The notes: generated by a model not told the origin, from the sequence alone. 32,000 nt of DNA from Desulfocapsa sulfexigens DSM 10523 (GCF_000341395.1 NC_020304.1:870001-902000); one strand, 5' to 3'. Positions 10,393-30,895 are shown, counted from the stretch's first letter. Numbers and translations: made by a program.

Positions 10393-11250
10393 ATGCATCA
10401 GTATGGATATATCGGCCGCAAATTGCGCGTCCCGAAACTCAAGAACAAACCAGCCATTATCATGGTCACCTTTGGTACCAGCAGTCAGGCAGAAAGGCCA
10501 CTGGGCCTGTTTCAGCAGCAGGTGGAAAAACAATTTGGGGAATACGAAACCTTCTGGGCGTACAGCTCAAACATCATCTGCAGAAAAAAGAAACTGCCGA
10601 GCCTGCAGCAGACCCTTGCAACTGTAGAGGCTGCAGGATTTCGTAAAGCTGTGGTTCAGCCCCTGCATATATTTCCGGGAACTGAGTATCAGCAGATGGC
10701 AGAGACCTGCGAATATTTCCCTGGCATTCGGGTTTTCCTCAGTGAAACCTTACTGCACCGCTGGAGCTTTGTTAAAGAGACCCTGGCCGTGGTTGAAAAG
10801 GAGTTTCTCGCTCCGGCAGAAGGCCTTAATATCCTGGCCCTCCATGGGACTCCCCTGGTTGCAGACCCGGTCAACAGCGGCTATCTCGGTCTTGAAAAAC
10901 TCGTTACAGACCGCTACCCGAACGTGCTCGCCGCATCCCTTGAGGGAGTGCCTGACAGTGACGCGGTATTTGCCGGAATACAAAACAAAAATATGGCCGA
11001 AAAGTATCGACAGATAAAAATAATTCCCATGATGTACCTGGCTGGAATGCACGCTGAAGAAGACCTTATGGCCCCAAAGAAAGTTGATAGCTGGCGTGTT
11101 ATCCTTGAATCCATGGGATTTGCTGTGGAATGTCCGATGGTTCAACATGGTAAAAAAGACTTTTTCAAGGGCCTTGCCTACTACCCGGAAATCATCTCAT
11201 TCTTCACGGACCGATTGCAACGAACCCTTGAAATAGCTGAGACCTACTAA
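10393..11250 (+). CDS. cbiK: CbiK-type (anaerobic) sirohydrochlorin cobaltochelatase-like protein, apparently cytoplasmic
   Basis: AIIMVTFGTSS matches the CbiK N-terminal strand. LALHGTP...NSGYLGLEKL matches the GHGT..Y..L His motif. IPMMYLAGMHAEEDL matches the AGdHa.nD motif. No signal peptide. RBS AAAGGAA. Confidence 0.7.
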   Translation: MHQYGYIGRKLRVPKLKNKPAIIMVTFGTSSQAERPLGLFQQQVEKQFGEYETFWAYSSNIICRKKKLPSLQQTLATVEAAGFRKAVVQPLHIFPGTEYQQMAETCEYFPGIRVFLSETLLHRWSFVKETLAVVEKEFLAPAEGLNILALHGTPLVADPVNSGYLGLEKLVTDRYPNVLAASLEGVPDSDAVFAGIQNKNMAEKYRQIKIIPMMYLAGMHAEEDLMAPKKVDSWRVILESMGFAVECPMVQHGKKDFFKGLAYYPEIISFFTDRLQRTLEIAETY

Positions 11251-11255
11251 AGCAC

Positions 11256-12110
11256 ATGTACAGACAACTCTTTGTCTTTTTCTTTTTTGTCCTATGTCTC
11301 TTCGGATCTCCTGTACAGGGGGCCGATGTCACATATCCTCAGCGCATAGTCTCCCTGGGGCCAATCAATACCGAAAACGTCTTCCTTCTGGGGGCTGGTG
11401 ATCGCCTTGTCGCCAATACCAGCTACTGCGTCCGCCCAGAGGCCGCTAAAGCCAGAGAAAAGATAGGTTCTGTAATGCAGGTTTCCATTGAAAAGATTAT
11501 TGGGCTACAACCTGACCTGGTACTGGCAACCGGCCTAACCTCGATGCAGCAAATTAAGCAGCTGGAGTCCGTTGGCATTAACGTTGTTCAGTTCAAGCAG
11601 CCATCATCTTTAGCGGATATCTGTACCCAGTTCCTCCTCCTCGGCCAGCTCCTTGGCCTTGAAAACCGGGCAAAAGCGCTCATTTCTGAAACAAAGGAAA
11701 GACTGAATAATCTTGAGAAGAAAATTGCCGGGGCGCCACCGCAGAAGGTCTTTCTTCAGGTAGGTTCCCAGCCACTATTCTCCTCGGTACCAAGCTCCTT
11801 CACCAATGACTTTATTGTCCTTGCCGGCGGCAGTAACATCGCAGCAGATCAGCAAAAAGGTACCACAAATTATGAAAAAGTGATCGCTGCCAACCCCGAT
11901 GTGATTATCATAGCCATGATGGGATCCGAAAGTGGTATTGCCTCAAAAGAACGTGAGCGATGGATGGAGATGCCTGTCATCAGTGCAGTGCAAAACAATC
12001 GGGTACATGTGATCAATCCTGACATCGCCTGCAGTCCTTCACCCGCGACCTTTACCGACACTCTTGAGATCATGGCCCGTCTGATTCACCCTGAACTCTA
12101 CACCCCATAA
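11256..12110 (+). CDS. periplasmic substrate-binding protein, BtuF / Fe-siderophore (cluster A, PBP_2) family
   Basis: The signal peptide is MYRQLFVFFFFVLCLFGSPVQGA. QRIVSLGPINTENVFLLGAGDRLVANTSYC is the typical BtuF/FhuD-type N-terminal motif. PDVIIIAM and RVHVINPD match the C-lobe. Confidence 0.75.
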   Translation: MYRQLFVFFFFVLCLFGSPVQGADVTYPQRIVSLGPINTENVFLLGAGDRLVANTSYCVRPEAAKAREKIGSVMQVSIEKIIGLQPDLVLATGLTSMQQIKQLESVGINVVQFKQPSSLADICTQFLLLGQLLGLENRAKALISETKERLNNLEKKIAGAPPQKVFLQVGSQPLFSSVPSSFTNDFIVLAGGSNIAADQQKGTTNYEKVIAANPDVIIIAMMGSESGIASKERERWMEMPVISAVQNNRVHVINPDIACSPSPATFTDTLEIMARLIHPELYTP

Positions 12111-12114
12111 AACC

Positions 12115-12729
12115 ATGAGAATTTACGAAATCATCCAAAGCGGTGGCCCGGTGATGTGGCCACTGCTCCTCTGTTCCGTGACGGTATGCACCGTTGTTCT
12201 GGAACGCAGTTTCTTCTGGATTTCCATCCAGCGCAGACGTAACCGTAAGCTGACGGATGAAGTCCTGACTCTTGCAGAAAGTGCTGACTGGAAGCTAATC
12301 CGTGAAAAAGTAACCGGCTGTCAAGACCATATCATCCGACTGCTGGTGGTTGGTATTCTGCACAGAGATTATGATATGGGCCGGGCCATGGAAGCTGAGG
12401 CGAACTTGATGATTCAGCGAATGAACCGCTTTATGCCAGTACTGGATACCATGATCACGGTGGCACCTCTGCTTGGAATATTCGGAACGGTACTCGGAAT
12501 CATCGGATCCTTTAAGATCCTTGGCAACAGTGGCATTGCCGATCCGAAGCTGGTCACATCCGGCATCGCCCAGGCACTCATCACAACTGCGGCAGGACTT
12601 GGCATCTCTATCATCGCGGTGATCCCCTACAACTACTTCAATACCCGAATAAACCGAGCAGTTCATGTGATGGAAAAGTATGCAACCAACCTGGAAGTGG
12701 TTTATGAAAAGCTGGACACCCCATCATGA
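12115..12729 (+). CDS. exbB: MotA/TolQ/ExbB proton-channel protein
   Basis: Three TM helices. The conserved C-terminal half is LDTMITVAPLLGIFGTVLGII...IAQALITTAAGLGISIIAVIPYNYF. Confidence 0.85.
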   Translation: MRIYEIIQSGGPVMWPLLLCSVTVCTVVLERSFFWISIQRRRNRKLTDEVLTLAESADWKLIREKVTGCQDHIIRLLVVGILHRDYDMGRAMEAEANLMIQRMNRFMPVLDTMITVAPLLGIFGTVLGIIGSFKILGNSGIADPKLVTSGIAQALITTAAGLGISIIAVIPYNYFNTRINRAVHVMEKYATNLEVVYEKLDTPS

Positions 12730-13139
12730 AAATTAAAGCTCAAGCAATCAAGGCACCGCGTATCGAGATGCTGCCACTCATCGATGTTGTCTTTCTGCTA
12801 CTGGTTTTCTTTATTTACGCAATGCTTTCCATGGCAGTGCATCGGGGAATGCAGCTTGATCTTCCGGAATCAACAGAGGCAACTGACAGTCATGAAAGCC
12901 CGTTTTCATTAACCATTCGTAGTGATGATAAAGATATGACACTTTTTCTCAATGAAAAACCTCTCCTCCTTTCTCAACTGGCTCAACATTTTGACTCAGT
13001 GGATACCAGCAACGGAAAAAAACCTTCAGTTCTTATTTTTGCAGACGAAAACATCAGCTACCAACAACTGTATCAGGTTCTCGATGAACTCAAAAAATGC
13101 GGGGTTTCGGATATTTCACTGCAGGCAAATCCGAAATAA
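12726..13139 (+). CDS. exbD: ExbD/TolR biopolymer transport protein
   Basis: An ATGA overlap joins it to exbB. The N-terminal motif is EMLPLIDVVFLLLVFFI. The C-terminal periplasmic domain reads VLIFADENISYQQLYQVLDELKKCGV. Confidence 0.85.
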   Translation: MKIKAQAIKAPRIEMLPLIDVVFLLLVFFIYAMLSMAVHRGMQLDLPESTEATDSHESPFSLTIRSDDKDMTLFLNEKPLLLSQLAQHFDSVDTSNGKKPSVLIFADENISYQQLYQVLDELKKCGVSDISLQANPK

Positions 13140-13145
13140 GCTCCT

Positions 13146-13811
13146 GTGCGAAGATTTATCCCTGCCCTGATCCTTGCCCTTTGTCTCCACATCTTCTTAC
13201 TGATATCAAGGTTTCCACACCTTCCAACACTTCCGCCACGTTTAACCGGGCAAGAAAGTGTTACCATCAGCCTCAGTCCAGGCAGCAGTGTTGAAAAGCA
13301 AACAGAAACCGTAACAAAAGAAGAGCAGAGGAACACCATTGAAAAACCTGAGAAGGACGAGGCCGCAGTGGAAACGTCTGAGAAAATAAATACTCACGAC
13401 AAACAACCAGTCGTTTTAAAAAAAAAGGCTGTTCAGAAAATTGTCCACTCTCCCTCAGTCCCTGAACAGAAAAAGGCAGGGGTACAGAACAGTGCCAGAC
13501 CGAGAGAGGAGAGTGAACTACCTGCTGTTCCCATCCTCGTAAAGGCCTCACCGCACTATGCAAGCAATCCAAAGCCGGAATATCCCGCACTGGCCCGCCG
13601 TCGCAACCAGCAGGGAACTGTTATGGTATCTGTAACTGTTTCAGAAAAAGGAGTTCCAGACAGGGTCAGCCTCCACAAAAGCAGCGGTTATCCACTGCTG
13701 GACAAATCTGCTCTGAAGGCAGTCACCTTATGGCACTTTCTTCCAGGAACGACAGCTGGCCATCCCGTTGCCACGGAGGTACTGATCCCGGTACATTTCA
13801 AACTTCATTAG
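13146..13811 (+). CDS. tonB: TonB-family energy transducer
   Basis: GTG start and an N-terminal TM anchor, then a Glu/Lys/Pro-rich linker. The TonB_C domain is PEYPALARRRNQQGTVMVSVTVSEKGVPDRVSLHKSSGYPLLDKSALKAVTLWHFLPG. Confidence 0.85.
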   Translation: MRRFIPALILALCLHIFLLISRFPHLPTLPPRLTGQESVTISLSPGSSVEKQTETVTKEEQRNTIEKPEKDEAAVETSEKINTHDKQPVVLKKKAVQKIVHSPSVPEQKKAGVQNSARPREESELPAVPILVKASPHYASNPKPEYPALARRRNQQGTVMVSVTVSEKGVPDRVSLHKSSGYPLLDKSALKAVTLWHFLPGTTAGHPVATEVLIPVHFKLH

Positions 13812-20905: not shown

Positions 20906-20928
20906 TTTATTTTACTAATGGATTCATC

Positions 20929-21515
20929 ATGCCCACTAAAGGTCAAGAGACTCGTAAACACATCCTGACAGAGAGCCGTAAGCTCTTTACTGTCCAGGGA
21001 TTTCAAAACACAAGCATCAGTGAAATAATTGCTGCGACAAGGGTAAAAAAGGAAATCTCTATTACTACTTTCCCAGCAAAGAGGAACTCGGCTTGGCCGT
21101 GCTGATTGATGCCAGGGATGAATTTTTCCATATTCTGGAAAACTCTCTGACCGGAGAAACCCCGATTCTCAGAATAATCAACTCCTGTAATTCAGTCATG
21201 GAACTCATGCAGCAAACAAACTTTGTCGGCGGTTGCCTGTTTGGTAATACGGCCCTGGAGATGACAGATTCCAACCCCAGATTCGGAGAAATTATACAGG
21301 AAATTTTCACCCACTGGACAACCAGGATAGAACAGCAGGTACTGCAGGCAACTGACACTGGAGAATTCAAAAGTGAAATACCATCCCATTCCCTGGCAAC
21401 TGCCATTGTTTCCATGCTGGAAGGAGGGATCATGTTTTCACGGGTCTATGGCAACAAAAAGGGACTCGAAGACTGTATCCTGGCCATCCGTTCCTTTCTG
21501 AAATGCCGAAGGTAG
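20929..21515 (+). pseudogene. TetR/AcrR-family regulator interrupted by a 1-nt frameshift in an A6 run
   Basis: Frame 1 gives MPTKGQETRKHILTESRKLFTVQGFQNTSISEIIAATRVKK. The TetR HTH then continues in another frame as (K)KGNLYYYFPSKEELGLAVLIDARDEFF...GCLFGNTALE...LEGGIMFSR to the stop at 21515. The switch falls in AAAAAA at 21045-21050; seven As would give one continuous ORF. Confidence 0.75.
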
Positions 21516-22700: not shown

Positions 22701-23990
22701 TTATTTCTTATGCGTCGCCCTCATAGTGCGGGCAAGTTCTTTTATCTCACCAAGATCTTTGGTCATCTCGTTCCAGCCATACCAATAGGCATAGTCAGGA
22801 TTGACATGGAAGAAACCTTGATAGGCCCGCATCCGGTGTTTCATATACATCTGCACTAGAACCTGGTCGATGTAGGAGAGTTTATCCAGATCCTTATCCC
22901 AACGTTCACCATTGGTATGCATGAAAGTCAGGAGGAACGGATAGTTTGCCGGATAGTTTGCCGGTTTTTCTATGATGCCCTCTTCATAAAGAGCCGCAAC
23001 CGTGGTAATAGCCTCAGCCATTAACCGATCGGCTTTCATCATAATAGAGTCGCCCATGTCAAGCTGTTCCTTGGCATAGCTTGCAGAATGACACTGCTGG
23101 CAGGTTTTCAGCATCTTGTCACGTTCCTTCTGCCACGACTCCTGGTCAAGCTTGGCCATACGTACGGCTTTAACTGCATCCAGGATCGGTGTGGGGGCTC
23201 CGGTCTTGGGATCAAGCACGCCAAGAGCCTTCAAAATAGTGACACGATCATCTGCAGCCTGTTTGTCATCGGGCAAAGGCAGGCGGACACCGAGGAACCC
23301 CCAGGCGGTTTCATTGTGGTGGGTGCCTTCCGGTAAATGACAGGTCTGACAGGTGGGAGCGGCAGCGTCGGCGGGCAGATCACCGTTCTGCTTGGCGAAC
23401 CAGCGCATTCCGTGTTTGGAGCTTGACCACATCTCCCACTGGGGATGATCGTAGCCCATATGACACTGCTGGCAGGCCCTCGGATTCTGAGCCTCTTTTT
23501 TGGAGAAGGAATGCCTGGTATGGCATTCATCGCATGAATTATTCTGGTAACGGTAGCCTTTGGCTACCTGTTCCTTTTTCTGCTCCTCAGTTTTTATTCC
23601 CATATTGTGACAACCACCACAGCCGCGCCCACCCTCGATCAGCTCATCAGGGGCGGCATGGGTGGCTGGAATAGCATTCAGCGATGTCCAGCCAAAATTA
23701 TGCTTGCCGCTTGCGAACTCGTTGAACTGCTCCTCATGACACTCGGCACAGACATGCTCATCCGGTAGCTTTGCATTTTTGTAATCCTCTGCGGTCTTAT
23801 GCTCCTCGCCATGGCAGGTGGAACAGGTCACTTCTCCGCTTTCGGCATGTTTACTTGATTGATAATCCTTGACCATAGCTGGTGACACTTTGGTATGGCA
23901 GTCGATGCAGGCATCACCGGCTGTGGCAAAGTTTACCGACAGCAGTAAACCTACTGTAGCGGCTATTGCCACAAAGTTTTTTTTTCTCAT
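22701..23990 (-). CDS. periplasmic octahaem cytochrome c of the hydroxylamine oxidoreductase (HAO) family
   Basis: Has a Sec signal peptide. Eight CXXCH motifs: CIDCH, CSTCH, CAECH, CGGCH, CDECH, CQQCH, CQTCH, CQQCH. The HAO-family block is CQQCHMGYDHPQWEMWSSSKHG. RBS AAAGGGAGGA. Confidence 0.9.
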   Translation of the reverse strand: MRKKNFVAIAATVGLLLSVNFATAGDACIDCHTKVSPAMVKDYQSSKHAESGEVTCSTCHGEEHKTAEDYKNAKLPDEHVCAECHEEQFNEFASGKHNFGWTSLNAIPATHAAPDELIEGGRGCGGCHNMGIKTEEQKKEQVAKGYRYQNNSCDECHTRHSFSKKEAQNPRACQQCHMGYDHPQWEMWSSSKHGMRWFAKQNGDLPADAAAPTCQTCHLPEGTHHNETAWGFLGVRLPLPDDKQAADDRVTILKALGVLDPKTGAPTPILDAVKAVRMAKLDQESWQKERDKMLKTCQQCHSASYAKEQLDMGDSIMMKADRLMAEAITTVAALYEEGIIEKPANYPANYPFLLTFMHTNGERWDKDLDKLSYIDQVLVQMYMKHRMRAYQGFFHVNPDYAYWYGWNEMTKDLGEIKELARTMRATHKK

Positions 23991-24105: not shown

Positions 24106-24417
24106 TTAATAATTCCGCGTGACGAAATCGACATACTCTCTCCATAATCTTGGTGGATCCAGAATTTGAAAATCGATCTCCCTTCCTTGATTATCTGATA
24201 GCGTGATTATGTTACAGACCCTGACAGAAATGGATATTGTCTGGTTGCTGGTAAGTATCAGTTTTATGGGGGCACGTGTCTTCTCATCAAACTGATCTGG
24301 AAGACCACTTGCCCTGAAGCTTGAACACGTAATGTTGCCTATGGTGCACTTATAATAAAATCTGCTGTCGGAAATCCTTATGGACAATTTTTTTGTGCTC
24401 ACCGCCAGTTCCTTCAA
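24106..24417 (-). CDS. hypothetical protein (possibly a degenerate PilZ-like beta-barrel)
   Basis: 103 codons with only a TTG start, which overlaps the stop of the HPP-like remnant (TTGA). There is a weak PilZ-like pattern (RISDSR ... GNITCSSF ... IKLILT ... ISVRV ... IDFQIL) but the canonical RxxxR and DxSxxG motifs are not intact. Confidence 0.35.
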   Translation of the reverse strand: MKELAVSTKKLSIRISDSRFYYKCTIGNITCSSFRASGLPDQFDEKTRAPIKLILTSNQTISISVRVCNIITLSDNQGREIDFQILDPPRLWREYVDFVTRNY

Positions 24418-24638
24418 TACCAGAATTCCGGGTATTGCCTTCTGGCGGACAAGTTATTGACCAGCAAGCCGATAACCAGCATGATTAATGTCCCCAGTCC
24501 CCCAGAAATGAAGGCATACAGATATCCAATATCATGAGTCTTATTGCTGTCGATGATCATAACCATGCCACCTTGGAACAGCCACGCAGCCTCTTCCCTG
24601 AAAAATTCATCTCTGGTAAGATGTCGATAGCACCAGCA
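24414..24638 (-). pseudogene. C-terminal remnant of an HPP-family membrane protein gene
   Basis: This open frame is too short for the ORF track. It ends ...HDIGYLYAFISGGLGTLIMLVIGLLVNNLSARRQYPEFWY*. That matches the last TM helix and the NNL...RR.YP..W tail that I recall for HPP-family proteins. No HPP motif or earlier helices are present. An internal ATG at 24566 would give only 50 aa. Confidence 0.4.
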
Positions 24639-24667: not shown

Positions 24668-25627
24668 TTACCAGTCCAGCAGCCGTTTGTTTCCTTCGAT
24701 TTTCTGAATCGCCCCGATGGCCTGGGTAACCTCCAGGACACCCATATAGACACCGTCATCATCGTAAACGGGGAAGTAGCGGATCAGGATCTTATCCTCC
24801 TTGAAATCGATCCAGAACTCAGCCTTGTCACGAGTTTTATCTTTAAAGCTCTGGACGATTTTGCGGACAGTGTCGACGGAATGGGCTGGGTGACATTTTT
24901 CCACCTTGCGGCCAATGACTGATCGGGTGCGCGGAAAGAGCTTTTCCTTGTCCAGTCGGTTGAAGTAGGCAACACTGTTCTCAGCATCAACAAAGGTCAC
25001 CTCAAAGGGCATGGCCTCCATGATGGCGTCAAGCTGTTTGTAGCTCAGACCTTCGATCAGCTTTTTACGCCGTTCATCTGTTTTTTCTACCTCCAGAACC
25101 ATCTGCTGGAATTTTTGCCAGGCATCTGGGCCGTAGGTCTCGGAATTAATAGATGCAAAAGAGTTGATGAGGTATTCGTTGTCGCCCTCCTGCATGAGTT
25201 TGCGACCCATGGGGTAAAGCACATCATTTTCTTTCCAAATATGGTCGGCTCGGATACGCAGGTAATCCTCCGCCTCCTGACAGAAGCTATTCTGCTCGGT
25301 GGTGGATATGGTATTAAGGGTACCAAGCTTCATGAGCATAGAGGAGAGCAAGTTGCGCTCGGCATCATGTTCCATGAGCATTACCGCCAGAGGCCCGCCA
25401 TTTCTGGGCACTCCACGCTCTTCCATCAAAGGGAAAAGATTTTCCTCCTCTTTCTTGTTGTGGATCTTATCGCCGAACTCCAAGAGAAAATCAACGGCCC
25501 GCCGCAGTTGCACCAAATCACACCGCCCCTCACGCAGTTTTGCCAGTTGTTCTTTGAGGACCGCCATGGCCCGTTCGATCATTTCATGTTCGGCGATTAA
25601 GTACTCATCCCATTCTGTAATATTCAT
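24668..25627 (-). CDS. hemerythrin-like / DUF438 / PAS-domain protein (typical hcp neighbour)
   Basis: I trimmed the start to ATG 25627 (MNITEWDEY...), 6 nt after GAGG. The hemerythrin-type motifs are EHEMIERAM, HNKKEEENLFP and MLMEHDAE. The C-terminal DUF438/PAS block is MPFEVTFVDAENSVAYFN...FPRTRSVIGRKVEKCHP...FWIDF...LIRYFPVYDDDGVYMGVLEVTQ. Confidence 0.85.
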   Translation of the reverse strand: MNITEWDEYLIAEHEMIERAMAVLKEQLAKLREGRCDLVQLRRAVDFLLEFGDKIHNKKEEENLFPLMEERGVPRNGGPLAVMLMEHDAERNLLSSMLMKLGTLNTISTTEQNSFCQEAEDYLRIRADHIWKENDVLYPMGRKLMQEGDNEYLINSFASINSETYGPDAWQKFQQMVLEVEKTDERRKKLIEGLSYKQLDAIMEAMPFEVTFVDAENSVAYFNRLDKEKLFPRTRSVIGRKVEKCHPAHSVDTVRKIVQSFKDKTRDKAEFWIDFKEDKILIRYFPVYDDDGVYMGVLEVTQAIGAIQKIEGNKRLLDW

Positions 25628-25667: not shown

Positions 25668-25685
25668 TGTGAAAACCCGTTCACA
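25668..25685. promoter_or_regulatory. perfect TGTGAA-N6-TTCACA palindrome upstream of the DUF438 gene
   Basis: TGTGAAaacccgTTCACA is centred about 50 nt upstream of the ATG at 25627. Confidence 0.5.
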
Positions 25686-25855
25686 TGGAAGAAAAAAAAT
25701 AACCTCTATTCCTAACCCGGATTTCACACAAGTCGGGATGACCATAGATGCGAGGAACGAGCATCGAACATTCGGCTAGTAACCTGGAGAAGTCGCCAAA
25801 CCCCCTGACATTATGGCTGTCATACCGGGCATAGTCGCTTTTCCAGGCCACGCCC

Positions 25856-27490
25856 TTATCCTAAAATGGCCTTCAGGTCTTCATCTGGGGTGGAGATGGG
25901 CATGATATTGAAGTTCTCCACAAGGACATTTAGGACATTCGGGGTAATGAATGCCGGTAGACTGGGTCCGAGGCGGATATCCTTGATGCCCAGAGAGAAG
26001 AGGGACAGCAGGATGACCACAGCCTTTTGCTCGTACCAGGAAAGAACCAGTGACAGGGGCAGATCGTTAACCTCGCAGTCAAAGGCACCAGCCAGGGCTA
26101 CGGCAATCTGGACTGCAGAATAGGCGTCATTGCACTGTCCCACGTCAAGAAGACGGGGAATACCGCCGATATCGCCGAGCTTCTTGTCAAAGAAGCGGAA
26201 TTTTCCGCAAGCCAGCGTCAAAACCATGCAATCCTCCGGCACTTTCTCCACCAGTTCGGTGTAGTAATTGCGACCCGGCTTGGCACCGTCACAGCCGCCC
26301 ACCAGGAAGAAATGGCGGATGGCCTTGGCCTTCACCGCACCGATGACTTTGTCAGCTACACCTAACACGGCGTTGCGGGCAAAACCGACCATGACAGAAC
26401 CATTGTCAACCTTATCGGTAAAGCCATCCAGGGCCAGGGCACGATCGATAACAGCGCTGAAATCCTTTTCCCCGCTGCCTTCAACATGGGCCACGTCAGG
26501 CCAGCCTACCAGGCCGGTGGTAAAGACGTTGTCCTTATAGGAATCCGCCGGCTTCTGGATGCAGTTGGTGGTAAACAGAATGGCTCCCGGGAATTCGGGC
26601 ATCTCCTTCTGCTGGTTCTGCCAGGCAGTACCATAATGACCGTAAAAGTGCGGATATTTCTTTAGCTCCGGATAGCCGTGGCAGGGCAGCATTTCGCCGT
26701 GGGTGTAGATGGTAATCCCCTTGCCCTCGGTCTGTTTGAGCAGCATATCCAGATCTTTCAGGTCATGGCCGGTTACCAGAATACACTTGCCGGGAATATG
26801 GCCCAGGGGTACCTCAGTGGGTACCGGATGGCCATAGGTGCCGGTGTTACCCGCATCAAGAAGCTCCATGGCCTTAACATTCACCTCACCGGTCTTAAGT
26901 GCCATGGCCACCAGGTCATTTAGCTCCATCTTGCTGGTAATGGCAGCCATGGCCTCATGGATGAAGGCATAGACCGCATCGTCTTCTTTACCAAGGATGG
27001 CAGCATGGTCTGTGTAAGCGGCCAAGCCGCGAAGTCCATACATAATAATCTGCTTCAGGGAACGCAGGTCTTCATTGGCATCAAGGCCGGGGATGAAGTC
27101 CAGCGCCTTGCCCTGATCTTCAAGACCGGCAAGGCTGTCAGCGGGAGAGAAAGACAGGGCGGCAGCCGAGCTGGTCACCGTACCGCCAGCCGCTTCGACC
27201 TTAGCTCTCAGCTCGTCACGCAGGGTAATGGCCTCTCTGATCAGGGTCTCGAATCTGGCTGGATCGAAGTCAACGTTGGTGAGACAAGAAAAGATCGCTT
27301 CACAGGTGAAACGATCAACCCTGTTATCAACTACACCCACCTGACGTCCGGCATGGGCAACAAGAGAAAGTCCCTGTACCGCGTGGGTCAACAAATCCTC
27401 AAGGCCGGCGACCTCATCATTTTTTCCGCACACTCCTATCTTGGTGCAGGCAATACCCTTTACTGTCTGTTCACACTGGTTACAAAACAT
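25856..27490 (-). CDS. hcp: hybrid cluster protein (hydroxylamine reductase / NO reductase) Hcp
   Basis: The N-terminal Cys cluster is MFCNQCEQTVKGIACTKIGVCGK. The length (544 aa) and conserved blocks fit Hcp: ILVTGHDLKDL, YTHGEMLPCHGYP, YGTAWQNQ, LFTTNCIQ, FLVGGCDG, LTLACGKFRF and DVGQCNDAYSA. RBS AGAGGAG. Confidence 0.95.
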   Translation of the reverse strand: MFCNQCEQTVKGIACTKIGVCGKNDEVAGLEDLLTHAVQGLSLVAHAGRQVGVVDNRVDRFTCEAIFSCLTNVDFDPARFETLIREAITLRDELRAKVEAAGGTVTSSAAALSFSPADSLAGLEDQGKALDFIPGLDANEDLRSLKQIIMYGLRGLAAYTDHAAILGKEDDAVYAFIHEAMAAITSKMELNDLVAMALKTGEVNVKAMELLDAGNTGTYGHPVPTEVPLGHIPGKCILVTGHDLKDLDMLLKQTEGKGITIYTHGEMLPCHGYPELKKYPHFYGHYGTAWQNQQKEMPEFPGAILFTTNCIQKPADSYKDNVFTTGLVGWPDVAHVEGSGEKDFSAVIDRALALDGFTDKVDNGSVMVGFARNAVLGVADKVIGAVKAKAIRHFFLVGGCDGAKPGRNYYTELVEKVPEDCMVLTLACGKFRFFDKKLGDIGGIPRLLDVGQCNDAYSAVQIAVALAGAFDCEVNDLPLSLVLSWYEQKAVVILLSLFSLGIKDIRLGPSLPAFITPNVLNVLVENFNIMPISTPDEDLKAILG

Positions 27491-27575
27491 GCTAAATCTC
27501 CTCTATAAAATGGGGACATAAATAAATATGGTACAGTGACGGTCACGTCATCCTTCATTTATTTTCCTGATTACC

Positions 27576-27613
27576 ACTCCTCCTCAGCCTACCCGGCTGA
27601 GGAGGAGTTTTTT
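27576..27613 (+). terminator. strong hairpin plus T6, canonical only on the + strand (orphan terminator)
   Basis: A 14-bp stem, ACTCCTCCTCAGCC-taccc-GGCTGAGGAGGAGT, runs into a T6 tract. It lies in the 311-bp spacer between the cupin stop and the hcp start, and no + strand gene precedes it. Confidence 0.5.
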
Positions 27614-27801
27614 CGTGTTGATGATATGGGCATCTGCGGCCTGGACGGCCGCAGCAGAGCCCCCAGGGATGGGTTTATGGCGTCCCATATAATCGACACG
27701 GAACAACTCCGGGTTGCTAAGCTGAGTTTCGATGGTAATCAAGTTTATTTTTATTCTTCAAAACTTCATTGACTTGAATCAATACTTTTCTTTTTCTTAA
27801 T

Positions 27802-28122
27802 TTAAATCGGAGGGGTGATGGTGACCACGATACGCATATCGCTTTCCGCTTTAACCCCATGCGGCTCCCTTATTTCAGAAATAAGAATATCACCTGTTTT
27901 GGCAGGTATCTCAGCTTCATCCTTTCCCAGAAAATACCCACTCCCCTCGATGACATGGATGGAAAGCTGACCATCCAAATCATGGGAGTGGACCGGAAAG
28001 GTATGACCAGCAGAAAGATTGAAGTTGATTATTTTAAAATTGGGCGAATCCTGGACAAGGAAGAACCGTTTCATTCCGCCTTCCGTAAACTCTCTGGTCT
28101 CATCAAGACTTATCTTTTTCAT
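27802..28122 (-). CDS. small cupin-domain protein
   Basis: I trimmed the start to ATG 28122 (MKKISLDET...), 4 nt after GAGGAGGAG. The cupin motifs are GHTFPVHSHDLDGQLSIHVIEGSG and GDILISEIREPHGV. Confidence 0.8.
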   Translation of the reverse strand: MKKISLDETREFTEGGMKRFFLVQDSPNFKIINFNLSAGHTFPVHSHDLDGQLSIHVIEGSGYFLGKDEAEIPAKTGDILISEIREPHGVKAESDMRIVVTITPPI

Positions 28123-28209
28123 GGAACTCCTCCTCACATAAGGAAAGGATCCGAAGTAAAAACCACCTCGGACGACCTCTTTTGTTGTATCCGTATGTCC
28201 TGAACAGGA

Positions 28210-28398
28210 CTACTCATCTTCAAGTTCGATAGCACCGACCGGGCACGATTCCACCGCCTCCTCGCAGTTACAGGTGGAACACTTGTCAGATCCGATGACC
28301 CAGGATTTCTCGTCTCGGATTTCGAAAACTTCGGGACAGAGCTCGGCACATATTTCACAGCCAATACACAATTCATGATCAACGATAGGCTTTGCCAT
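28210..28398 (-). CDS. small single-cluster ferredoxin
   Basis: I trimmed the start to ATG 28398 (MAKPIVDHE...) after AAGGAGGA. It is 62 aa with CIGCEICAELCP and a distal C..C....SCP. It ends 87 nt upstream of the cupin start, so the two are probably co-transcribed. Confidence 0.85.
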   Translation of the reverse strand: MAKPIVDHELCIGCEICAELCPEVFEIRDEKSWVIGSDKCSTCNCEEAVESCPVGAIELEDE

Positions 28399-28410
28399 AA
28401 CATCCTCCTT

Positions 28411-28428
28411 TGTGAAATCATTTTCACA
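28411..28428. promoter_or_regulatory. perfect TGTGAA-N6-TTCACA palindrome abutting the ferredoxin RBS
   Basis: TGTGAAatcattTTCACA. On the coding strand it reads TATTATGTGAAAATGATTTCACAAAGGAGG, so a -10-like TATTAT overlaps the left arm and the RBS follows the right arm. Confidence 0.55.
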
Positions 28429-28501
28429 TAATAGGCAAAAAAATATTATCCCTGAAAGCCAAGCAAAAAAGTGCACAGCCCCAGGTTGTTTCTACTTGTC
28501 G

Positions 28502-29119
28502 TCATCCGGAACCCCGCTCGTTTTTTCCGGTCAGCAGCAGTCGAAAAAGTGGCCATGCTGCGCTGAAATGCCCCTCAACATCAAACTGTCCTTCACTCAT
28601 GTGCCAGAGCAGGGCCGCTGGCTGGACAATACCAAAAAACATCCTGGCTACGGCTCCAGGTTCCAGGCTACTCCGAATCTCTCCCTTAGCCTGTCCTTCA
28701 CGAATGATCTCTTCCAGTTCTGCGAGATAACTGCTGACGATAAAGAACATCTGTTGACGCCTGATCCGTTTCTGCCCCCACAACTCGTCGGAAAAGACGA
28801 TGCGCGGGATACCCTGGTTCTGGATGATCAGCCTGCTATGACGGACAAGCAATTCATGGAGGCGATCGACGGCGTTTTCTCTTATCTGCCGAACATTCAC
28901 TATATTTCTATAGAGTTTACCCCGTATATGTTCCAGGATTGCGCTTAAGATTGCATCCCTGTTTTTGAAGTGACGGTAGAGTGCCGAAGGGGCCAAACCC
29001 AGATGGGCGGCAATCTCAGTGACCTTCAGCTTTTTCACCTCGTTATCACTAAGGATGTGCAAGGCAGCTTCGACGATCTGTTCCTTCCGTATGCCCGAGG
29101 AAAGTTTTTCCGTAGTCAT
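28502..29119 (-). CDS. TetR/AcrR-family transcriptional regulator
   Basis: The N-terminal HTH is RKEQIVEAALHILSDNEVKKLKVTEIAAHLGLAPSALYRHFKNRDAIL. The C-terminal helical domain is TetR-like. RBS AAGGAG. Confidence 0.9.
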   Translation of the reverse strand: MTTEKLSSGIRKEQIVEAALHILSDNEVKKLKVTEIAAHLGLAPSALYRHFKNRDAILSAILEHIRGKLYRNIVNVRQIRENAVDRLHELLVRHSRLIIQNQGIPRIVFSDELWGQKRIRRQQMFFIVSSYLAELEEIIREGQAKGEIRSSLEPGAVARMFFGIVQPAALLWHMSEGQFDVEGHFSAAWPLFRLLLTGKNERGSG

Positions 29120-29134
29120 ATTATTTGCTCCTTA

Positions 29135-29178
29135 AGTGAACTTAAATTCACATTAGGCAGTCCCTGTTGTGTTGTCAA
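29135..29178 (-). promoter_or_regulatory. candidate sigma70 promoter of the TetR gene with overlapping TGTGAA-N6-TTCACT operator
   Basis: The minus strand reads TTGACA (29178-29173), a 17-nt spacer, then TAATGT (29155-29150). The -10 overlaps the palindrome TGTGAAtttaagTTCACT (29152-29135), which has 11 of 12 arm positions. The RBS AAGGAG follows immediately. Confidence 0.5.
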
Positions 29179-30517: not shown

Positions 30518-30826
30518 TTAGCGTTTCCGGCCACCTCCCCCACCACTCCCACGCCTTTGCTGAGTACTACTATCATCTCTTTTTGCATTGGCTGGTTGTC
30601 CAGTGTATTGCTGCCGTTCCTCTGGCGTCATATTCTGCATGCGCTCCTGCCATTCAGAACGAAAAGCATTACGCTCTTCCTCGCTTGCCTCCTGCAGAGT
30701 TCCCCGCGAGTTACTGAGTTCTTCATTACTCATGCTGGAATAATCGTTTACTGCCCATACCGGTGTTGCTGCTGTCATGAACGTCATGGTCAACATAATT
30801 GCTGTTTTTTGAATCTTGCATGTCAT
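30518..30826 (-). CDS. small secreted acidic protein with Gly/Arg-rich tail
   Basis: RBS GGAGGA lies 5 nt upstream. The signal peptide is MLTMTFMTAATPVWA. Repeated EE(E)R motifs occur (EEERNAFRSEW, TPEERQQY). The tail is RRGSGGGGGRKR. Confidence 0.6.
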   Translation of the reverse strand: MTCKIQKTAIMLTMTFMTAATPVWAVNDYSSMSNEELSNSRGTLQEASEEERNAFRSEWQERMQNMTPEERQQYTGQPANAKRDDSSTQQRRGSGGGGGRKR

Positions 30827-30895
30827 GATTTTTCCTCCATATTTTTTTGGGAATCATAATTCACAGGCCGTCTTAAGTTCCTCACCTGCTCCATC

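Follow-up and report, generated by a model that had tools for sequence, protein, structure and literature searches.

Repressors of the TetR family that act on palindromic operators are a well-known kind of regulatory system; the best match in sequence, among proteins of solved structure, to the regulator considered here is the acyl-CoA-responsive Bacillus-type FadR (YsiA), for which the unit bound by one dimer of the B. halodurans protein is ATGAAT-N4-ATTCAT (PMC5397183). Control of hcp, which encodes hybrid cluster protein, and of its neighbours in anaerobic bacteria has been attributed to HcpR of the CRP/FNR type, to NsrR or to NorR (PMC1274295). The subject of this analysis is a stretch of 32,000 nucleotides from Desulfocapsa sulfexigens DSM 10523 (GCF_000341395.1, NC_020304.1:870001-902000), hereafter the window, in which an hcp gene lies among minus-strand genes for a TetR-family regulator, a ferredoxin, a cupin protein and a hemerythrin-PAS protein, and in which the palindrome TGTGAA-N6-TTCACA recurs. 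It is very probable, judging from comparative sequence evidence, that this element, in full (A)TGTGAA-N6-TTCACA(T) with the core GTGAA-N6-TTCAC, is the operator of the TetR repressor encoded at 28502-29119. The pair appears to be undescribed so far, no TetR protein with this operator and no link between a TetR protein and hcp having been found in the literature, with most subscription journals outside the search.

The assignment of the regulator to the TetR family is straightforward. It contains a TetR_N domain (PF00440; residues 15-61, E = 2.4e-09, 37.2 bits against a cut-off of 24) and a 'YsiA-like' TetR_C_4 domain (44.6 bits against a cut-off of 21), its AlphaFold model has 10 helices (predicted local distance difference test score, pLDDT, 85.8; predicted template modelling score, pTM, 0.79), and the top matches of that model in the PDB are all of TetR fold with a probability of 1.00; a helix-turn-helix domain, an all-helical two-domain fold whose C-terminal part is of the ligand-binding and dimerising type, and a palindrome in the promoter are all present. 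The alignment with FadR is full-length (PDB 3WHB, 1VI0, 5GP9 and 5GPC; profile E = 3.5e-24), but identity to the B. subtilis and B. halodurans proteins is only 21-25%, the similarity of fold is 0.69-0.76 on the template modelling (TM) scale, and the score against the FadR equivalog of NCBIfam (NF053878) is 71.1 bits, below the cut-off of 200. Read as GTGAAT-N4-ATTCAC, the core in the window has the 6-N4-6 geometry of the FadR unit, with one base, the first, different in each half-site, and the outer T/A differs as well. FadR is autoregulated, as is predicted for the window TetR, whereas its regulon is that of fatty-acid beta-oxidation and no such genes stand beside the 80 related tetR loci described below, no fad gene having been detected downstream of tetR in any of them. 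The closest fold is that of the nucleoid occlusion factor SlmA (TM 0.77-0.81, 19-20% identity), the nearest solved structures being those of SlmA and B. subtilis FadR with TM values of 0.75-0.81, and SlmA recognises a GTGAG-type palindrome; the window TetR nevertheless scores 60.5 bits against the SlmA equivalog (NF007015; cut-off 120), and SlmA has a different genomic context and is not an autoregulated local repressor with an operator overlapping its promoter. In mycobacteria, MSMEG_3765/Rv1685c is a TetR repressor of an autoregulated ABC-exporter operon that is induced by acid-nitrosative stress (PMC5660060), and serves as a functional precedent only, for the combination of TetR with efflux and nitrosative stress; it differs from the system of the window in its motif, an imperfect palindrome of 36 bp that runs on into the coding region, and in an operon that has the regulator gene at its end. 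CecR (YbiH) of Escherichia coli was suspected because many distant members of the family precede YbhGFSR-like HlyD-ABC operons, but it was rejected: the BLASTP match covers only 54 residues over the helix-turn-helix, at E = 0.09, and the palindrome upstream of cecR is unrelated.

A scan of the window for TGTGAA-N6-TTCACA returned two perfect copies and one with a single mismatch (operators 1 to 3, Table 1), reproducing exactly the positions and mismatch counts reported by a first-pass annotation made from the sequence alone. That annotation had also judged the recurrence very unlikely to be due to chance, and here the window by itself excludes chance only moderately: it holds 13 perfect 6-N6-6 palindromes, among which TGTGAA is the sole arm seen twice, but some repeated arm also appeared in 8 of 200 first-order Markov simulations of the window, and with up to two mismatches there are five matches against 2.0 expected. 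What is decisive is the comparison with related loci. Orthologues of the regulator number about 95 at 55-83% identity and belong mostly to the Desulfobulbaceae; 33 of them were aligned, peptide patterns were derived from the alignment, and a scan of one genome per GTDB species with these patterns yielded 80 loci with 887 kb of DNA, comprising orthologues at 60-80% identity (L001-L017) and relatives at 34-46% identity (L018-L080) from Planctomycetota, Acidobacteriota, Verrucomicrobiota, Hydrogenedentota, Omnitrophota and other Desulfobacterota. These loci contain 108 sites with at most one mismatch, against about 2 expected, and all but nine of the sites (99 of 108) stand immediately upstream or downstream of tetR, most of the remaining nine being further operators of the same clusters. 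A site lies between -60 and -15 of the tetR start, at 21-48 nt before it, in 67 of the 78 loci that could be tested, and a second follows within 400 nt of tetR in 31 of the 80. In the orthologues, the palindrome is found 29-38 nt ahead of the tetR start wherever the locus includes the upstream DNA, and all 17 loci show another copy just past the tetR stop, ahead of whatever gene comes next. Cultured strains that share the layout are Desulfobulbus rhabdoformis DSM 8777 (L004), Desulfogranum japonicum DSM 18378 (L005, L006) and Desulforhopalus singaporensis DSM 12130 (L009). Conservation upstream of orthologues, which the first-pass annotation had named as a check, thus obtains for the tetR site and for the second site downstream.

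The pairing of motif and regulator is still seen where protein identity has fallen to 35%, among Planctomycetota, Acidobacteriota, Verrucomicrobiota and Hydrogenedentota, in every case with the recognition helix PSALYRHF. Across the 108 sites, positions 2-6 (GTGAA) and 13-17 (TTCAC) are essentially invariant and the outermost T/A is the most variable position, while the spacer is constant in length at six nucleotides in essentially all of them and free in sequence, though rich in A/T; invariant arms around a free A/T-rich spacer are a signature of recognition by a protein. In a subclade defined by the helix alpha2 pattern I..[IV]A..VGI, 11 of 14 loci have the operator in the variant form TGTGAAT-x-GTGAATCACA, as does 1 of the 62 others (Fisher p = 7e-10), which is, at the level of sequence, a co-variation of protein and DNA. 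The loci with these tandem half-sites are L030, L035-L037, L050, L058, L059, L063, L067, L069 and L073, where they lie 40-48 nt before tetR. The arrangement recalls the overlapping inverted repeats that are bound by two FadR dimers, and by analogy binding may here involve a dimer of dimers.

The placement of the sites is in keeping with repression. Operator 1 ends 15 nt before the tetR ATG on the coding strand, and the first three of its bases are the last three of a -10 hexamer, TAATGT, which is separated by 17 nt from a -35 hexamer, TTGACA; this TTGACA-N17-TAATGT arrangement stands in the same register in the window and in L001-L017 when the orthologue loci are aligned on the site. A generic sigma-70 scan did not flag the tetR promoter in the window, TAATGT failing the 4-of-6 rule of that scan, so that the promoter call rests on conservation across species. 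The layout is, as predicted from these alignments, that of a classical autoregulated TetR repressor promoter. Directly upstream of operator 2, and overlapping it by 1 nt, is a -10-like TATTAT, and in the sites downstream of tetR the bases T-T-A or T-A-A directly before TGTGAA are conserved. Overlap of the left end of the site with a -10-like hexamer, noted at first pass for the tetR and ferredoxin copies, is seen at both.

Table 1. Features of the window that bear on the proposed operator system (window coordinates; a dot marks sites without an assigned strand)
Feature	Coordinates	Strand	Remarks
Predicted tetR promoter	29150..29178	-	-35 TTGACA at 29178-29173, 17-nt spacer, -10 TAATGT at 29155-29150
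Operator 1, predicted autoregulatory site	29135..29152	.	coding strand TGTGAATTTAAGTTCACT; 1 mismatch, at the outermost position, which is the most variable one
TetR-family regulator, 205 aa	28502..29119	-	Pfam TetR_N and TetR_C_4; recognition helix APSALYRHFKNR
Operator 2, predicted	28411..28428	.	perfect, 0 mismatches; 12 nt from its end to the ferredoxin ATG
Single-cluster 4Fe-4S ferredoxin, 62 aa	28210..28398	-	Pfam Fer4_13; true ATG at 28398; gene call in L110
Cupin_2 protein, 106 aa	27802..28122	-	Pfam; orthologues of 80-88% identity at the same position in L001-L006
FNR-type box	27769..27782	.	plus strand TTGACTTGAATCAA, coding strand TTGATTCAAGTCAA
Hybrid cluster protein Hcp	25856..27490	-	Pfam Prismane, E = 8e-167
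Operator 3, predicted	25668..25685	.	perfect, 0 mismatches; ends 40 nt before the hemerythrin-PAS ATG
Hemerythrin + PAS_10 protein (earlier the 'DUF438' gene)	24668..25627	-	Pfam, NCBIfam; weakly similar to RIC/YtfE
Remnant of HPP-family (TM_HPP) membrane protein	24417..24569	-	residues 128-178 of 178 (last 51 codons); tblastn with the L001 HPP protein 53% identity, E = 9e-10
Candidate weak fourth site	30848..30865	.	coding strand TGTGAATTATGATTCCCA; 1 core mismatch

A mechanism can be proposed on this basis, in which binding, repression, dimer stoichiometry and release by ligand are inferred. A TetR dimer would bind each copy of the palindrome. The tetR site starts in the -10 and extends over the point at which transcription is expected to begin; a dimer bound there would keep RNA polymerase off the promoter and so bring about autorepression, and the copies before the ferredoxin-cupin unit and the hemerythrin-PAS gene would place both units under the same repressor. 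In L110 (GCA_975001335.1), a 31-kb contig from a 98.4%-identical relative that reaches 7.1 kb past the window, a fourth copy would act on an intact CBS-HPP operon just past the window end. Release of the repressor would follow binding of a small ligand in the FadR-like C-terminal domain, while hcp, which is situated between the TetR-controlled units, would keep an FNR-type (HcpR-like) activator box of its own. With TetR operators and an HcpR-like box side by side, the island would be run by two regulators.

Several observations weigh against this interpretation. In the literature searched, experimental binding or repression was not found for any member of the family. The patterns by which the loci were retrieved contained the recognition helix PSALYRHF[KR], and the sample consequently shows that carriers of this helix have the site, not that other TetR proteins lack it; the co-variation in the alpha2 subclade compensates in part for this bias. 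For operators 2 and 3 no convincing -35 was seen in the aligned loci, which makes the promoter under control harder to define than that of tetR, and these sites may belong to weak promoters, or may serve as roadblocks or act on read-through from tetR. It is the autoregulatory site that is imperfect in the window, and in L110 the same site (L110:9968-9985) has a second mismatch which changes the core TTCAC to CTCAC, whereas the sites of L110 before the ferredoxin, hemerythrin-PAS and CBS-HPP genes are still perfect; the core mismatch suggests that autorepression is weakening in this lineage. As for the signal, no cysteine is conserved among 77 family members, on which ground direct sensing of nitric oxide (NO) or redox state through cysteines was rejected; direct sensing by thiols or by an Fe-S cluster is unlikely for the same reason, and the ligand expected by default is small and probably hydrophobic. 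Finally, two further TetR genes, of the TetR_C_13 type, lie nearby, one at about 20922-21509 on the plus strand of the window (L110:17611-18198) and the other at L110:1838-2446.

These two genes give substance to the view that one of the paralogues is the true binder and that adjacency of the motif to the present tetR is coincidental: both are within about 10 kb, and the site at L110:2645 is in an intergenic region shared with one of them, which is divergent from CBS-HPP and stands beside a MacB-type efflux operon. Neither has a recognition helix like PSALYRHF, however, theirs being GALFRHFPSK and KGNLYYYFPSK; the promoter at L110:2645 faces the CBS gene and not the paralogue, and the motif is found about 30 nt before the gene of the present subfamily in 67 of 78 loci whatever the neighbours, so that the paralogues have a small chance of being the binder. 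A slightly smaller chance attaches to Rex, the NADH/NAD+-sensing regulator that would tie these genes to redox state. The Rex operator (ROP) is the closest look-alike of the palindrome and had been missed at first pass; it too is a repressor site at the promoters of redox genes, its consensus TTGTGAA-N4-TTCACAA (PMC5355995) has identical half-sites, and the genes behind the window sites encode redox proteins. Its spacer, however, is N4; that of the three window sites, and of the 108 with hardly an exception, is N6, which sets the half-sites 2 bp further apart; Rex is a Rossmann-fold winged-helix protein and not a TetR, no rex gene was found in the window or in L110, and the motif tracks tetR, not rex, at a fixed distance from the start in many phyla.

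Less likely again is binding of the three palindromes by an HcpR of the Desulfovibrio type, a CRP/FNR-family protein that recognises TGTGA-N6-TCACA. The cores TGTGA and TCACA are those of the window sites, and the neighbourhood, with its hcp, ferredoxin-like, hemerythrin-like and cytochrome genes, has the content typical of an HcpR regulon (PMC1274295), but the cores in the window are 8 bp apart and not 6, and TGTGA-N8-TCACA fits neither of the HcpR motifs. The sites lie against the ribosome-binding site or reach into the -10, a place that suits a repressor and not an activator, whose position is at about -41.5; HcpR of delta-proteobacteria outside Desulfovibrio uses TTGAC-N4-GTCAA, a box of which kind is conserved before hcp, and orthologues of the hemerythrin-PAS gene elsewhere carry an FNR-type box and not the TGTGAA palindrome. 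The least credible of the alternatives is that the palindromes are RNA hairpins of 5' leaders that govern stability or translation and are not DNA operators at all. Two copies do lie directly before a Shine-Dalgarno sequence, and each copy can form a stem of 6-7 bp; the folds are weak and not distinguishable from those of shuffled sequences (z = -0.5 to -1.6), there is no Rfam match, and the arms keep one sequence, whereas in an RNA stem covariation would be expected. Since the conserved tetR promoter is expected to start transcription inside the palindrome, the full hairpin would not be transcribed there. The preference expressed at first pass for the adjacent TetR over a CRP/FNR-type factor is upheld by the fixed position of the motif with this subfamily across phyla, by its overlap with the promoter and by the co-variation of the variant operator. 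For annotation it follows from the Rex-like half-sites with their N6 spacer that such sites are not to be recorded as Rex or CRP sites.

If the palindromes are operators of this TetR, operator 2 would govern the ferredoxin gene, which is the first gene downstream of it and follows the second site in 11 loci, and the cupin gene is probably co-transcribed with it, as the gap of 87 nt between the two holds no convincing terminator. The case of hcp is different. An FNR-type box between the cupin and hcp genes, separated by 19 nt from the cupin stop and by 278 nt from the hcp ATG, is the sole match of its kind in the window, and L001-L006 have TTGAY-N4-GTCAA in the corresponding position, followed 21-23 nt downstream by a -10-like hexamer, CATAGN or TAAACT. 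Rodionov et al. derived wyTTGACnnnnGTCAArw as the HcpR motif for Geobacter, Desulfuromonas and Desulfotalea (PMC1274295), and the box of the window fits this motif of delta-proteobacteria other than Desulfovibrio; it is likely, from motif and position, to be an HcpR site and not a TetR site. Given this conserved box, hcp probably stays under control of the HcpR type, although read-through from the ferredoxin promoter into hcp is possible. No gene for a CRP/FNR regulator was found in the annotated parts of the window or in L110, and HcpR is presumed to be encoded elsewhere in the genome. The first-pass annotation had instead drawn hcp into the TetR-operator group by way of a weaker relative of the palindrome at 27536-27550 (GTGAC-g-GTCAC); this element falls in an insertion of about 180 bp that is specific to the window and is absent from the hcp leaders of L001-L006, and for hcp the HcpR-type box takes its place. 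The insertion accounts for the extra length of the hcp leader (window 27540-27760) relative to L001-L006, and it contains a strong, terminator-like hairpin at 27576-27608, with 14 pairs followed by TTTTTT, on the plus strand and thus antisense to hcp.

The history of operator 3 is of a different kind. It had been claimed as an operator of the DUF438 gene, here the hemerythrin-PAS gene, and the perfect site in front of that gene is real, but it is not tied to the gene: the TGTGAA palindrome is absent before the hemerythrin-PAS orthologues at all 23 loci compared (from metagenomes, 38-71% identity), and conservation of operator 3 together with the gene was accordingly rejected. Several of the orthologues elsewhere directly follow a cupin gene and others lie behind an FNR-type box. 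What is conserved is the position of the site, for in L001 and L003 a perfect copy occupies the same place after hcp, ahead of genes for a CBS-domain protein and an HPP-family protein, and a remnant of an HPP gene is still to be found downstream of the hemerythrin-PAS gene in the window. The simplest reading of the positional conservation and the remnant is that CBS and the greater part of HPP gave way to the hemerythrin-PAS gene, which inherited their TetR-controlled promoter. In L110 an intact CBS-HPP pair is present 7 kb past the window end, at L110:2645-3930, with the perfect site at L110:2645 accompanied by TTGACA-N17-TAATGT.

Further downstream of the hemerythrin-PAS gene, at 22701-23990 on the minus strand of the window, lies a gene for an octahaem c-type cytochrome, which has eight CxxCH motifs and weakly resembles the hydrazine/hydroxylamine oxidoreductase family. 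Its orthologue at L007:3181-4482 (76% identity) belongs to a cluster in the order tetR-[site]-fdx-CBS-HPP-x-cupin-cytochrome, and the cytochrome may be part of the same transcription unit or regulon.

Across the family, the genes downstream of tetR are most often those of an HlyD protein with a YbhGFSR-like ABC exporter (36 of the 80 loci), followed by DUF6448 (17/80), ferredoxin (14/80), HPP (8/80), an RND pump (6/80) and MMPL (2/80). Genes for defence against NO and O2 nevertheless appear in several arrangements: operator-tetR-flavodiiron-hcp in a member of the Thermoguttaceae (L064, Planctomycetota), tetR-hemerythrin-cupin-ferredoxin in L028, tetR-hemerythrin in L025, tetR-[site]-DUF6448-hemerythrin in L024 and L039, and tetR-flavodiiron in L037. 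Links to Hcp, flavodiiron or hemerythrin genes recur independently in Planctomycetota, Acidobacteriota, Phycisphaerae and several lineages of Desulfobacterota. From this distribution the ancestral role looks like local control of an exporter, with genes of NO and O2 stress recruited repeatedly and most extensively in the Desulfobulbaceae, and the gene content may point to a nitrosative or oxidative stress signal. It is conceivable, and is offered here as a tentative proposal, that this previously unrecognised multi-phylum subfamily with the helix PSALYRHF(K/R) is a dedicated stress regulator parallel to HcpR. Its signal would be some product of nitrosative or oxidative damage, or else nitrite or NO acting indirectly through a lipid- or acyl-CoA-like ligand, and it would switch on detoxification genes of the di-iron and Fe-S kinds (for flavodiiron, Hcp, hemerythrin/RIC-like, ferredoxin and cupin proteins), HPP-type putative nitrite transporters, DUF6448 proteins and efflux pumps.

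The interest of the system lies in its breadth across phyla, in a site that so closely resembles that of Rex, and in the repeated association with Hcp, flavodiiron and hemerythrin genes. At the locus of the window it would add a second layer of control, for which the comparative support is strong, with TetR acting on the genes to either side of an hcp promoter of the HcpR type, namely those of the ferredoxin-cupin, CBS-HPP and hemerythrin kinds; from the Desulfobulbaceae to the Planctomycetota and Acidobacteriota the same pair is set mostly before efflux pumps and DUF6448, and repeatedly before flavodiiron, Hcp and hemerythrin genes. Motif and recognition helix together provide a testable definition of the regulon for a widespread and uncharacterised TetR subfamily, and a handle on poorly understood genes such as those for the cupin, DUF6448, HPP and hemerythrin-PAS proteins. 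The DUF6448 proteins (L009:7712-8434, L024:1627-2250, L039, L018 and 13 more loci) are secreted and show HCD(T/G)xDGPV after the signal peptide, a beginning reminiscent of the N-terminal Ni-hook, HCDLPCG, of nickel superoxide dismutase.

Two other parts of the window may be mentioned. The candidate site at 30848-30865 stands 21 nt before the start codon of an open reading frame (30518-30826, minus strand) for a secreted protein of 102 aa with a glycine/arginine-rich tail; it is also present in the 98%-identical relative L110, beyond which it found no comparative support, and is a possible weak fourth operator. Upstream of the island, on the plus strand, positions 10393-13811 encode an ExbB-ExbD-TonB set together with a chelatase of the CbiK type and a periplasmic binding protein, which suggests a cluster for the uptake of a metal or corrinoid that is unrelated to the operators.

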